Positions 7,693 through 9,063 of a stretch of DNA of 64,000 nt are shown in pieces; the stretch's first letter is position 1; each line of letters opens with the position of its first letter. The stretch is from a virus (taxonomy: Duplodnaviria; Caudoviricetes). The DNA is taken from positions 1-64,000 of the IMG/VR virus record IMGVR_UViG_3300017912_004409; one strand, given 5' to 3'. The translations under genes and the position numbers were made by a program. Under the pieces are notes generated by a model. The model was not told the origin of the DNA. It made no database searches and saw only the letters and a program-made list of their open reading frames with translations.

Positions 7693-8103
7693 ATGATCAT
7701 GCAAACCAAGTCAAAGTTCCAGTACAGCTGGTTTCACTACGATGTAGAAGTGGGCCTCCAGGCACATGAATTCTTTACTGATGTGAATCTTCTTTGTTAT
7801 GAAGATGCACTTCGTAAAGATCACGTAGTGAGCGTTGAGCTTAGCACTCTTGCTGCATGGGAAGTACCTCCTGTTGTTTTGTTACAAGTTCTTGTATCAA
7901 GACTCTCAGGGCAAGGTTCTTTGTCAATGAAAATCACTACAGATTACGAGTACGGTCGTATCTGTGTGTTCTATTTGACACCCCATGAGAATATCACTGA
8001 TCTTTCGGACGGTGATATTACTGATCTTTTGGATCGCAAGTGTGAAGAAGCTGCAGCTAACCTAGCTACTACTCCTTCAGAAATGAAGGATCCTTGGTGG
8101 TGA
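7693..8103 (+). CDS. Hypothetical early protein
   Basis: First ATG after repeat A2; stop TGA begins repeat B1. Confidence 0.65.
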   Translation: MIMQTKSKFQYSWFHYDVEVGLQAHEFFTDVNLLCYEDALRKDHVVSVELSTLAAWEVPPVVLLQVLVSRLSGQGSLSMKITTDYEYGRICVFYLTPHENITDLSDGDITDLLDRKCEEAAANLATTPSEMKDPWW

Positions 8104-8153
8104 CTCTTGCACTAAGCCCCTTCGGGGGTTTACTGCAGGACTCAATATCCTGC
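8101..8153 (+). ncRNA. Structured repeat family B copy 1 (53 nt)
   Basis: TGACTCTTGCACTAAGCCCCTTCGGGGGTTTACTGCAGGACTCAATATCCTGC. Confidence 0.7.
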
Positions 8154-8174
8154 TTGATCATTGCTTATTAAACT

Positions 8175-8354
8175 ATGTCTGCACTCAATTTCAGAGCAAA
8201 CATGAAAGGGCTTATTCCTTTTCTAAAGGAAACTTTAGACAATGCCATGGAAGACTTATCTTTACAAGATAAGATCTATGAGTATCGTGTACGTAGTGCA
8301 TCTATTGTGATGCCTAAAGATTGCACACTCTATGTACCAGGTAAAGATCAATGA
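8175..8354 (+). CDS. Hypothetical 59-aa protein, absent from the ORF track
   Basis: MSALNFRANMKGLIPFLKE...YVPGKDQ; ATGA overlap with the next gene. Confidence 0.6.
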   Translation: MSALNFRANMKGLIPFLKETLDNAMEDLSLQDKIYEYRVRSASIVMPKDCTLYVPGKDQ

Positions 8355-8641
8355 AATGGCGTCTCGTGCGTGGTAAAGGTTCATCAATTCCGATTGAATC
8401 TTTTTACAATAAACCCACTTCCAGTGATGTCCACACAGCATTAACCATCTTTACGATGGGTGTTGTTGTTGGTTTAATAGGTGTTGTTGGATTGCACAGG
8501 GTATTGAACCACAGGGCCATTAAACAATGTAATGACCTGGCGGCAATTCAACCTGAGCAATCATCACACACTTTGACTTTAGTCAATACTGTTCTAGGAG
8601 ATGCTTACGAGTGCGTAAGAACATCTCGTAGAAAGATTTGA
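8351..8641 (+). CDS. Hypothetical membrane protein
   Basis: TM segment ALTIFTMGVVVGLIGVVGL. Confidence 0.6.
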   Translation: MKWRLVRGKGSSIPIESFYNKPTSSDVHTALTIFTMGVVVGLIGVVGLHRVLNHRAIKQCNDLAAIQPEQSSHTLTLVNTVLGDAYECVRTSRRKI

Positions 8642-8691
8642 CTCTTGCACTAAGGGGCTACGGCCCTTTTCTGCAGGACTCAATATCCTGC
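8639..8691 (+). ncRNA. Structured repeat family B copy 2
   Basis: TGACTCTTGCACTAAGGGGCTACGGCCCTTTTCTGCAGGACTCAATATCCTGC. Confidence 0.7.
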
Positions 8692-8716
8692 TGTTTACTC
8701 AACTCAACTTAATTCA

Positions 8717-9013
8717 ATGGATTCATTCAAACAAATCACAGAACGAACAAATTGGATATTAAAATTCGATGAGGATTTTGTACTCCAAGTTAAAGAACAT
8801 GCTTTGTTTGCTCTTTTTGCTATTAATGTAGATGAGCAATCAGATTGGAAGAATATTCCAAAATCCATCCTAAAAGATGGTTGCATTGATTTCTTTGTTC
8901 TTGATAAATGGCATAACTATCAATTTATAGATCAAGAAATTAATCTTGATAAAGCTTTTCTTGCTAGATGGATAATTACCACTTTGCGAAAAGCTGAACC
9001 AACGGTCAATTGA
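8717..9013 (+). CDS. Hypothetical early protein
   Basis: 98-aa ORF between repeats B2 and B3. Confidence 0.65.
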   Translation: MDSFKQITERTNWILKFDEDFVLQVKEHALFALFAINVDEQSDWKNIPKSILKDGCIDFFVLDKWHNYQFIDQEINLDKAFLARWIITTLRKAEPTVN

Positions 9014-9063
9014 CTCTTGCACTAAGGGGCTACGGCCCTTTTCTGCAGGACTCAATATCCTGC
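9011..9063 (+). ncRNA. Structured repeat family B copy 3
   Basis: Identical to copy 2. Confidence 0.7.

Follow-up and report, generated by a model that had tools for sequence, protein, structure and literature searches.

The IMG/VR record analysed here is 74.7 kb long and carries direct terminal repeats, and the window is its first 64 kb (64,000 nucleotides). The family A DNA polymerase of this phage is 63.7% identical to the counterpart in S-EIVl, a polar freshwater cyanophage and the sole cultured relative. The sequence at window positions 6200-12500 was found in seawater metagenome DNA runs and in no RNA run, and the source phage is an S-EIVl-like marine cyanophage. Past the end of a minus-strand block at 6153, small ORFan genes form an array on the plus strand.

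Three direct repeats of 54 nt each, counting the T that completes a TGA stop codon, are found in this array at 8100-8153, 8638-8691 and 9010-9063. Copies 2 and 3 have the same sequence (100% identity), from which copy 1, at 83% identity, differs chiefly in the apical stem. The original prediction had reported three copies with the last two identical and a covarying cUNCGg hairpin with a swapped stem, and both observations were borne out: the variable part is a 7-bp stem with the loop cUUCGg (copy 1) or cUACGg (copies 2 and 3), and the G-C core of the stem is inverted between the copies. The 21-nt core at the 3' end occurs three times in the window, against 0.01 occurrences expected by chance, and no further occurrence was found in the whole 74.7-kb genome. 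A covariance model of the element (see below) likewise recovered just these three copies within the window. All copies are located between co-directional ORFs, beginning at a stop codon and ending some 25 nt short of the next start, and from the orientation and short spacing we infer that the three genes share one transcript.

From 5' to 3', each unit consists of the upstream stop codon, segment A (10 nt), the apical hairpin P2, segment B (10 nt), a short loop, segment C (6-9 nt in the family), a G-poor leader of about 25 nt and the start codon of the next gene. The features in the window are as follows.

8100..8153, plus strand: element copy 1 (covariance model score 69.2 bits)
8101-8103, plus strand: TGA stop of the upstream ORF, copy 1
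8102-8111, plus strand: segment A of copy 1
8112-8113 / 8132-8133, plus strand: internal loop of copy 1
8114-8131, plus strand: P2 hairpin of copy 1, with cUUCGg loop
8134-8143, plus strand: segment B of copy 1
8144-8147, plus strand: loop between B and C of copy 1
8148-8153, plus strand: segment C of copy 1
8154..8177, plus strand: copy 1 leader (21 nt, G-poor, without Shine-Dalgarno sequence) and ATG at 8175 of a 59-aa ORF
8638..8691, plus strand: element copy 2 (71.6 bits)
8639-8641, plus strand: TGA stop of ORF 8351-8641, copy 2
8640-8649, plus strand: segment A of copy 2
8652-8669, plus strand: P2 hairpin of copy 2, with cUACGg loop
8672-8681, plus strand: segment B of copy 2
8682-8685, plus strand: loop of copy 2
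8686-8691, plus strand: segment C of copy 2
8692..8719, plus strand: copy 2 leader (25 nt, TCAAC motif twice) and ATG at 8717 of a 98-aa ORF
9010..9063, plus strand: element copy 3, same sequence as copy 2 (72.8 bits)
9011-9013, plus strand: TGA stop of ORF 8717-9013, copy 3
9012-9021, plus strand: segment A of copy 3
9024-9041, plus strand: P2 hairpin of copy 3
9044-9053, plus strand: segment B of copy 3
9054-9057, plus strand: loop of copy 3
9058-9063, plus strand: segment C of copy 3
9064..9102, plus strand: atypical leader of copy 3 and ATG at 9100 that opens a 104-aa frame

The leader of copy 3 contains a second C-like segment (9067-9073) and two very short ATG frames (9077 and 9087). Its ATG lies 37 nt from the end of C and 26 nt from the second C-like segment.

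B can pair upstream with A, giving helix P1 and, together with P2, one long hairpin, or downstream with C, giving the short hairpin P3. As originally predicted, the two pairings exclude each other.

Homologues were collected with pattern and covariance-model searches. The exact 21-mer was present on 12 other IMG/VR contigs, and a degenerate 17-mer matched 88 loci, which gave the 72 unique full elements from which the covariance model was built. The model added about 60 more diverged copies within the contigs already found, and it alone detected one diverged copy in S-EIVl (27.4 bits). Altogether more than 100 unique homologues were found on about 90 IMG/VR contigs. On those contigs long enough to check, the DNA polymerase is 63-64% identical to that of the window, so the element family spans a deep S-EIVl-like lineage. 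A blastn search of cultured phages gave spurious matches of 24-26 nt and no real one, and an exact search of viral contigs for the S-EIVl-type P3 gave 0 matches. Bacterial genomes contained 98 scattered 17-mer matches, against about 140 expected by our estimate, with no enrichment in cyanobacteria; a host motif was ruled out by these chance-level counts. No Rfam family matched the window at gathering scores, and a search of 6200-12500 with E up to 5 returned only a tRNA and three chance-level matches elsewhere, so that the copies were placed neither among the self-cleaving ribozymes nor among the known phage cis-elements of Rfam. No description of the element was found in the literature, and it belongs to no RNA family described so far.

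The long hairpin is conserved as a structure. P1, its basal helix, has 10-11 bp, and in the 72-sequence alignment P1 and the lower part of P2 were 95.9% paired with 137 two-sided changes, a value reached by 0 of 500 shuffles. P1 is lengthened by pairing of the upstream UGA with the UCA that ends B on its 3' side. P2 is hypervariable; it is between 6 bp and about 25 bp long and freely swaps G-C, C-G and A-U pairs. UNCG or GNRA loops cap 27 of the 55 distinct P2 hairpins (49%), about six times the share expected by chance. A pyrimidine-pyrimidine mismatch in the internal loop at the P1/P2 junction was kept in 72/72 copies, and another mismatch, low in P1, in 71/72. Positions of A that face G are limited to C or U, which means G-U pairs on the plus strand, as an RNA helix predicts. 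In the two copies with tetraloop-identical stems, the minus strand folded worse than the plus strand. These data strongly support selection on RNA structure, as had been suggested from the three copies. A DNA palindrome or an attC-like site was also considered; it is disfavoured by the many G-U pairs, the RNA-type tetraloops and the weaker fold of the minus strand.

The second helix is conserved as well. The B:C helix hardly varies within the core subfamily, and its closing pair, which may be G-C, G-U, A-U or C-G, is paired in 72/72 copies. In diverged copies A, B and C change in concert. Among 53 distinct A/B/C combinations, which include 18 distinct B segments, positions b2-b7 were paired in 48-53 combinations for A:B and in 52-53 for B:C, with 3-5 and 4-5 pair types per position, respectively, at b2, b6 and b7. 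Because family members are often related, such cell counts exceed the number of independent events, and the 18 B types are the conservative figure. With one representative per B type, 105 cells were paired for A:B and 107 for B:C, and both helices exceeded all 2000 partner shuffles (mean 89.5 and maximum 98 for A:B; mean 88.4 and maximum 99 for B:C). The basal mismatch at b8 was unpaired in P1 in 50/53 combinations. Both exclusive helices are maintained by compensatory change in the 18 B types. Homologues that kept the sequence and lost the pairing would have refuted the original prediction; what we found was conserved pairing. The diverged S-EIVl copy preserves P3 through changes on both strands, its P1 is weakened, and its minimum-energy fold is P2+P3.

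One feature of P3 is left without a reason by pairing, namely a 4-nt part of its loop that is near-invariant in the core subfamily. This could mark the site of an RNA-binding protein, a translational regulator or an antiterminator, with P3 displaying the loop motif and A:B hiding it until the upstream gene is translated. The motif of the loop, TCAAC, recurs in 43/72 leaders, against 6 expected, mostly 1-8 nt before the start codon, and a P3-only version lies upstream of a gene at loci L012 and L013. The leaders are partly homologous, however, so that these TCAAC counts are non-independent. Outside the core subfamily the loops vary freely in length (3-7 nt) and sequence while the pairing persists, and no candidate protein was found. 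We consider a protein site unlikely.

The two folds differ in predicted stability. The long form was the more stable one in 95% of 105 unique elements, with a difference of 4.4 +/- 2.7 kcal/mol, and in the window copies it had -24 to -24.5 kcal/mol against -19 to -20 kcal/mol for the alternative. The pair probability at equilibrium in the free RNA was 0.99 for A:B and about 1e-4 for B:C, and blocking about 12 nt after the stop codon raised B:C to 0.8-1.0. The element is therefore predicted to have two states with a bias to the long form, to need a trigger and not to be freely bistable. The original prediction had called it bistable, which holds for the two exclusive folds and fails for the idea of equal energies, the long form being favoured by 4-5 kcal/mol in all three copies. 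A purely cotranscriptional switch, which had been offered as one possible function, is also unlikely, since A and B are made before C and A:B is the more stable helix. For the same reason an outside trigger, such as a terminating ribosome or a cut, would be needed. Folding thus describes a cis-acting two-state structure in the plus-strand early mRNA, whose predicted default is a long irregular hairpin. When A is unavailable, B is predicted to refold with C as P3, which ends about 25 nt ahead of a start codon that has no Shine-Dalgarno sequence.

The position of the element between genes is precise. The TGA consists of the T before A and the first two bases of A, and a TGA overlapping A in this way closes the longest upstream frame in 59/72 core copies and in 29/36 diverged copies. 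The remaining copies have a stop no more than 9 nt away. Stop codon read-through of the SECIS type was rejected, as an in-frame TAA follows four codons past the TGA in all three copies and the downstream ORFs lie in varying frames, each with its own ATG. On the other side, the distance from the end of C to the next start has a median of 25 nt and is mostly 19-29 nt (interquartile range 24-29 in the diverged set). G makes up 4.9% of the leaders in between and 21-23% of the coding sequence on either side, and only 5/72 leaders have a motif like the Shine-Dalgarno sequence. In cyanobacterial hosts, translation is mostly initiated without Shine-Dalgarno pairing. The leader and start codon are unpaired in either conformer, and sequestration of the start codon was rejected on this ground. 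In cyanobacteria and plastids, the start codon of mRNAs without a Shine-Dalgarno sequence is chosen through a local lack of structure (PMC3121790). The unpaired, G-poor leaders would fit start selection of this type.

Three segments with alternative pairing, the first of them accessible to a ribosome, recall switches that act on transcription. Like trp-type attenuators and ermC-type translational attenuation, both of which are leader switches that sense ribosomes, the element has exclusive consecutive pairings in which a ribosome on the first segment would decide which helix forms. In those systems a leader peptide does the sensing, whereas here the sensing ORF would be a gene of full length, and there is neither a terminator U tract nor a sequestered Shine-Dalgarno sequence or start codon. 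Like the put site of phage HK022, an early-operon RNA of two adjacent stem-loops, the P3 state has two hairpins (P2+P3), here 2-4 nt apart. Such structure-based control is plausible since Rho is not known from cyanobacteria. However, most members have no U tract after either hairpin, and the region contains 6 terminator-like sites, against 5.1 expected. An intrinsic terminator within the element was rejected, as the long hairpin and P3 precede C/A-rich sequence and the T's after P2 belong to the stem; in a loose terminator scan, only P3 of copy 2 passed. HK022 put occurs once per operon just past the promoter and needs downstream terminators, whereas the present elements stand between genes in arrays of 3-4, several tandem copies per operon, with no terminators above chance downstream and no Rfam match. 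We know of no alternative-pairing logic in HK022 put. The analogy with put drawn in the original prediction is therefore not supported, and a transcription-level switch, either put-like antitermination or trp-type attenuation through the position of the ribosome, is the least likely of the readings that we weighed.

The arrays also bear signs of gene exchange. Each interval between successive elements holds one small gene, and neighbouring elements often carry different A/B/C sets. Upstream gene family 4 has 8 different downstream families as partners across the element, and downstream family 5 has 6 upstream ones. Loci L022 and L031 have near-identical flanks with a patch of about 25 nt cleanly swapped, bounded by conserved A and B. 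The elements thus appear to mark junctions of shuffled gene cassettes. In this they resemble the PeSLs of T4-like phages, which are cassettes at the boundaries of shuffled early genes (PMC4122927, PMC2839356). Like PeSLs, they are short conserved intergenic cassettes with a stem-loop, located in hyperplastic regions of small ORFans at the edges of genes gained, lost or swapped among related phages.

It could be argued from this likeness that the element is a DNA cassette of the PeSL type, with P2 and a T-rich tail as terminator stem-loop, an early promoter in the block from B to C, and recombination as its main role. Besides the position between small ORFan early genes and the joining of one upstream family to many downstream ones, the strong conservation of the B-loop-C block, its constant spacing of about 25 nt to the ATG and the 3-4 T's after many P2 stems would agree with this. 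PeSLs are, however, defined by a sigma-70-type promoter (-35, N17, -10), and a promoter scan found no site in any copy and no such arrangement, so that a sigma-70 promoter in the copies was rejected; what is conserved here is RNA pairing. For either -10-like hexamer, the -35 position expected 17 nt upstream would lie within the hypervariable P2. Diverged members keep the pairing of the B-loop-C block and not its sequence, the G-U pairs indicate RNA, and the T tails are missing in one class and part of the stem in others. Nor was a phage RNA polymerase or sigma factor found. No sigma-70 region 2 was found in the phage proteins; a T7-type RNA polymerase was not found either, in a test that is weak as the control genomes were also negative; and the DxDxD catalytic motif is absent from every frame. 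Two ORFs of 1020 and 1751 aa had no match in Pfam, PHROG, PDB or Atlas, and a cryptic polymerase among them is formally conceivable. Overall, a PeSL-like DNA cassette seems to us improbable, slightly more so than a protein site.

The early region of T7 offers a closer parallel. Its RNase III sites R0.3-R1.3, and similar sites in the early mRNA of the Bacillus phage SP82, recur in mutually similar form from one early gene to the next along a single strand, as do the copies described here. The long form also shares their shape, an irregular hairpin that spans about two helical turns (about 20 bp) and is interrupted by an internal loop, and cleavage would leave the upstream message with a 3' hairpin. 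The axial length of the long hairpin is at least 19 nt per strand, with a median of 20 and up to 32 at the top of the range. The part of the original prediction that pointed to an RNase III-type processing signal thus agrees with the anatomy: the location between genes, the internal loop and a helix that measures no less than 19-20 bp-equivalents. The likeness concerns predicted anatomy, and the T7 sites have no described alternative helix of the B:C type, no stop codon at the helix base and no hypervariable apical stem.

The element could then be purely an intercistronic processing site in which the ribosome plays no part. RNase III would make a single cut at the internal loop, B would come free of the weak basal helix with its mismatch and refold with C, P3 would shield the 5' end of the downstream message and P2 the 3' end of the upstream one. 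The minimum helix length of 19-20, the internal loop and basal mismatch that were both kept, the stable tetraloops of P2, the start of P3 within 0-2 nt of the predicted cut and the intercistronic position all agree with this. The phage encodes no RNase III gene. RNase III is present in all cyanobacteria, as are RNase E and RNase J (PMC10989914); these two enzymes and 5'-end sensing are central in cyanobacteria, and infection by cyanophages raises RNase E activity (PMC10989914, PMC3113571). A site of this type leaves unexplained, however, why a stop codon lies in the helix base of about 80% of the copies, and the S-EIVl copy, with its weakened long helix, has P2+P3 as its fold of minimum energy. 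We rank processing alone second, as a serious minority reading.

We favour, tentatively and with somewhat less than even confidence, a toggle between cistrons that is actuated by a ribosome or by cleavage, with the long form as a candidate substrate of an RNase III-type enzyme. The element probably links RNA processing or translation of the adjoining genes. The trigger of this toggle would be a ribosome terminating at the embedded UGA. A ribosome whose A site holds the UGA extends over roughly 12 nt beyond it, a footprint that would cover A and spare P2, so that each termination event would melt P1 and flip the RNA to P2+P3. The chief physical difference between the two predicted states is a coaxial helix of about 20 bp, which is a hallmark of RNase III substrates such as the early sites of T7. 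Host RNase III, which is double-strand-specific, would accordingly attack the long form only, where it meets at least 19-20 bp-equivalents. If the cut fell at the internal loop, the upstream cistron would end in P2 as a 3' cap, and the downstream one would begin with P3 as a 5' hairpin. As a net effect, neighbouring cistrons would be insulated, and the processing or stability of each junction would be tied to the translation of the upstream gene. The element would also fix the 5' edge of an unstructured landing pad for ribosomes. As a by-product, its conserved segments may act as recombination joints in the shuffling of cassettes.

Some observations weigh against this toggle. No conformer hides the start codon or leader, so that any benefit of switching is putative. 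Pairing also gives no reason for the near-invariant 4-nt part of the P3 loop in the core subfamily. The overlap with the stop codon could reflect compaction, and a mobile cassette that brings its own stop could simply be convenient. As for a nuclease as read-out, many of the long helices have just 13-18 true base pairs, and little is known of what cyanobacterial RNase III requires of a substrate.

A further and more speculative version of the toggle, which we regard as possible but doubtful, is a UGA-termination switch of a kind undescribed in bacteria or phages. The mRNA would keep a brief record of upstream translation, and this record would gate the attack by RNase III. Alternatively, the terminating ribosome may be passed across the hairpin base to the start codon without a Shine-Dalgarno sequence about 25 nt beyond, as a prokaryotic counterpart of hairpin shunting or of termination-reinitiation. 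Neighbours in an array would use orthogonal A/B/C sets and so avoid cross-pairing.

Repeated intergenic units near gene ends or starts also include the REP/BIME sequences of enterobacteria and the SAS/ESAS of Cluster K mycobacteriophages. Near a stop codon, REP hairpins act on the ribosome that terminates there and on how stable the upstream mRNA is. However, REPs are repeated hundreds of times in host genomes and have no conserved alternative helix, SAS/ESAS are motifs of sequence located at the ribosome-binding site, and in contrast to the present element neither has a three-way covariation.

Gene expression in cyanophages beyond the T4-like and T7-like groups is essentially uncharted. Here we describe an abundant cis-acting RNA strongly backed by covariation, with two selected folds and a placement between stop codon and next start that is precise to the nucleotide. 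The copy in the cultured phage S-EIVl makes it directly testable. The family would provide a natural set of orthogonal small RNA parts for insulation or switching, and a mechanism-level handle on the shuffling of early-gene cassettes in the S-EIVl-like lineage. For these phages, the element may be a compact means of organising polycistronic early mRNAs.

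The 54-nt two-state RNA element of the window shares its gene array with a second class of intergenic cassette, a 30-nt repeat present in two identical copies. Each copy has a hairpin of 5 bp whose 11-nt loop contains TATAAAC, and begins directly 3' of a stop codon, the next start lying a few tens of nucleotides downstream. A third recurring motif precedes three middle genes (starting at 16271, 20378 and 22042) and consists of a short hairpin, then TTAAAC, then a stretch with complementarity to the loop of that hairpin; a G-poor leader again comes after the motif. The repeated elements, tRNA genes and large ORFs are as follows.

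Further features of the window (coordinates, strand where assigned, description)
3091-6153, −, very large ORF, 1020 aa
6742-6918, tandem 59-nt repeats with shorter repeats inside, 86% identical
7310-7387 and 7604-7681, duplicated 78-nt element, copies 86% identical
9421-9450 and 10233-10262, 30-nt repeat, copies identical
10945-11017, −, tRNA-Met (CAT)
14292-14367, +, tRNA-Leu (TAA)
about 16220-16270, 20325-20377 and 21990-22041, third recurring motif
19205-19279, +, tRNA-Arg (TCT)
39378-45110, −, tail-spike or fibre-like protein, 1910 aa, PHROG match at the C-terminus
49567-54822, −, very large ORF, 1751 aa

The tandem 59-nt repeats are located in a 1.4-kb non-coding stretch separating divergent gene blocks and may represent either an origin or a region for promoter regulation. 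Among the three tRNA genes, tRNA-Met is encoded on the other strand from the early genes around it and is 80-95% identical to tRNAs from many T4-like cyanophages. The 1020-aa and 1751-aa ORFs matched nothing in Pfam, PHROG and PDB sequence searches, both lack a DxDxD motif, and an Atlas search gave no usable match for the 1020-aa ORF. The 1910-aa protein contains an extensive 78-nt (26-aa) repeat array spanning 41392-44778.

Between the two copies of the 78-nt element the stem is nearly all rewritten, with complementarity retained. The cultured phage S-EIVl (KJ410740, L190) has the same pair (L190:7003-7036 and L190:7297-7330) at the same 294-nt spacing, and this pair is the sole DNA-level match to S-EIVl within the early region. 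S-EIVl also carries one diverged copy of the 54-nt element, and an open frame (L190:8164-8601; around 42195-42632 of KJ410740) has its ATG 26 nt past that copy. In the deposited annotation the same gene begins only at an internal ATG (L190:8410); the annotated start is therefore probably too far downstream.

In two IMG/VR contigs the exact 21-nt 3' core of the element (L012:2374-2394 and L013:1548-1568) forms an 8-bp hairpin, P3, with an ATG 15 nt downstream. No recognisable A segment or apical hairpin P2 was found upstream of it in either contig, which suggests that P3 can function alone. In the arrays of four other contigs (L046, L079, L026 and L031), adjacent elements on one contig often have different sets of the pairing segments A, B and C, each internally consistent; the three copies in the window have one set in common. 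Different sets in neighbouring elements would prevent cross-pairing, or recombinational deletion between adjacent copies.
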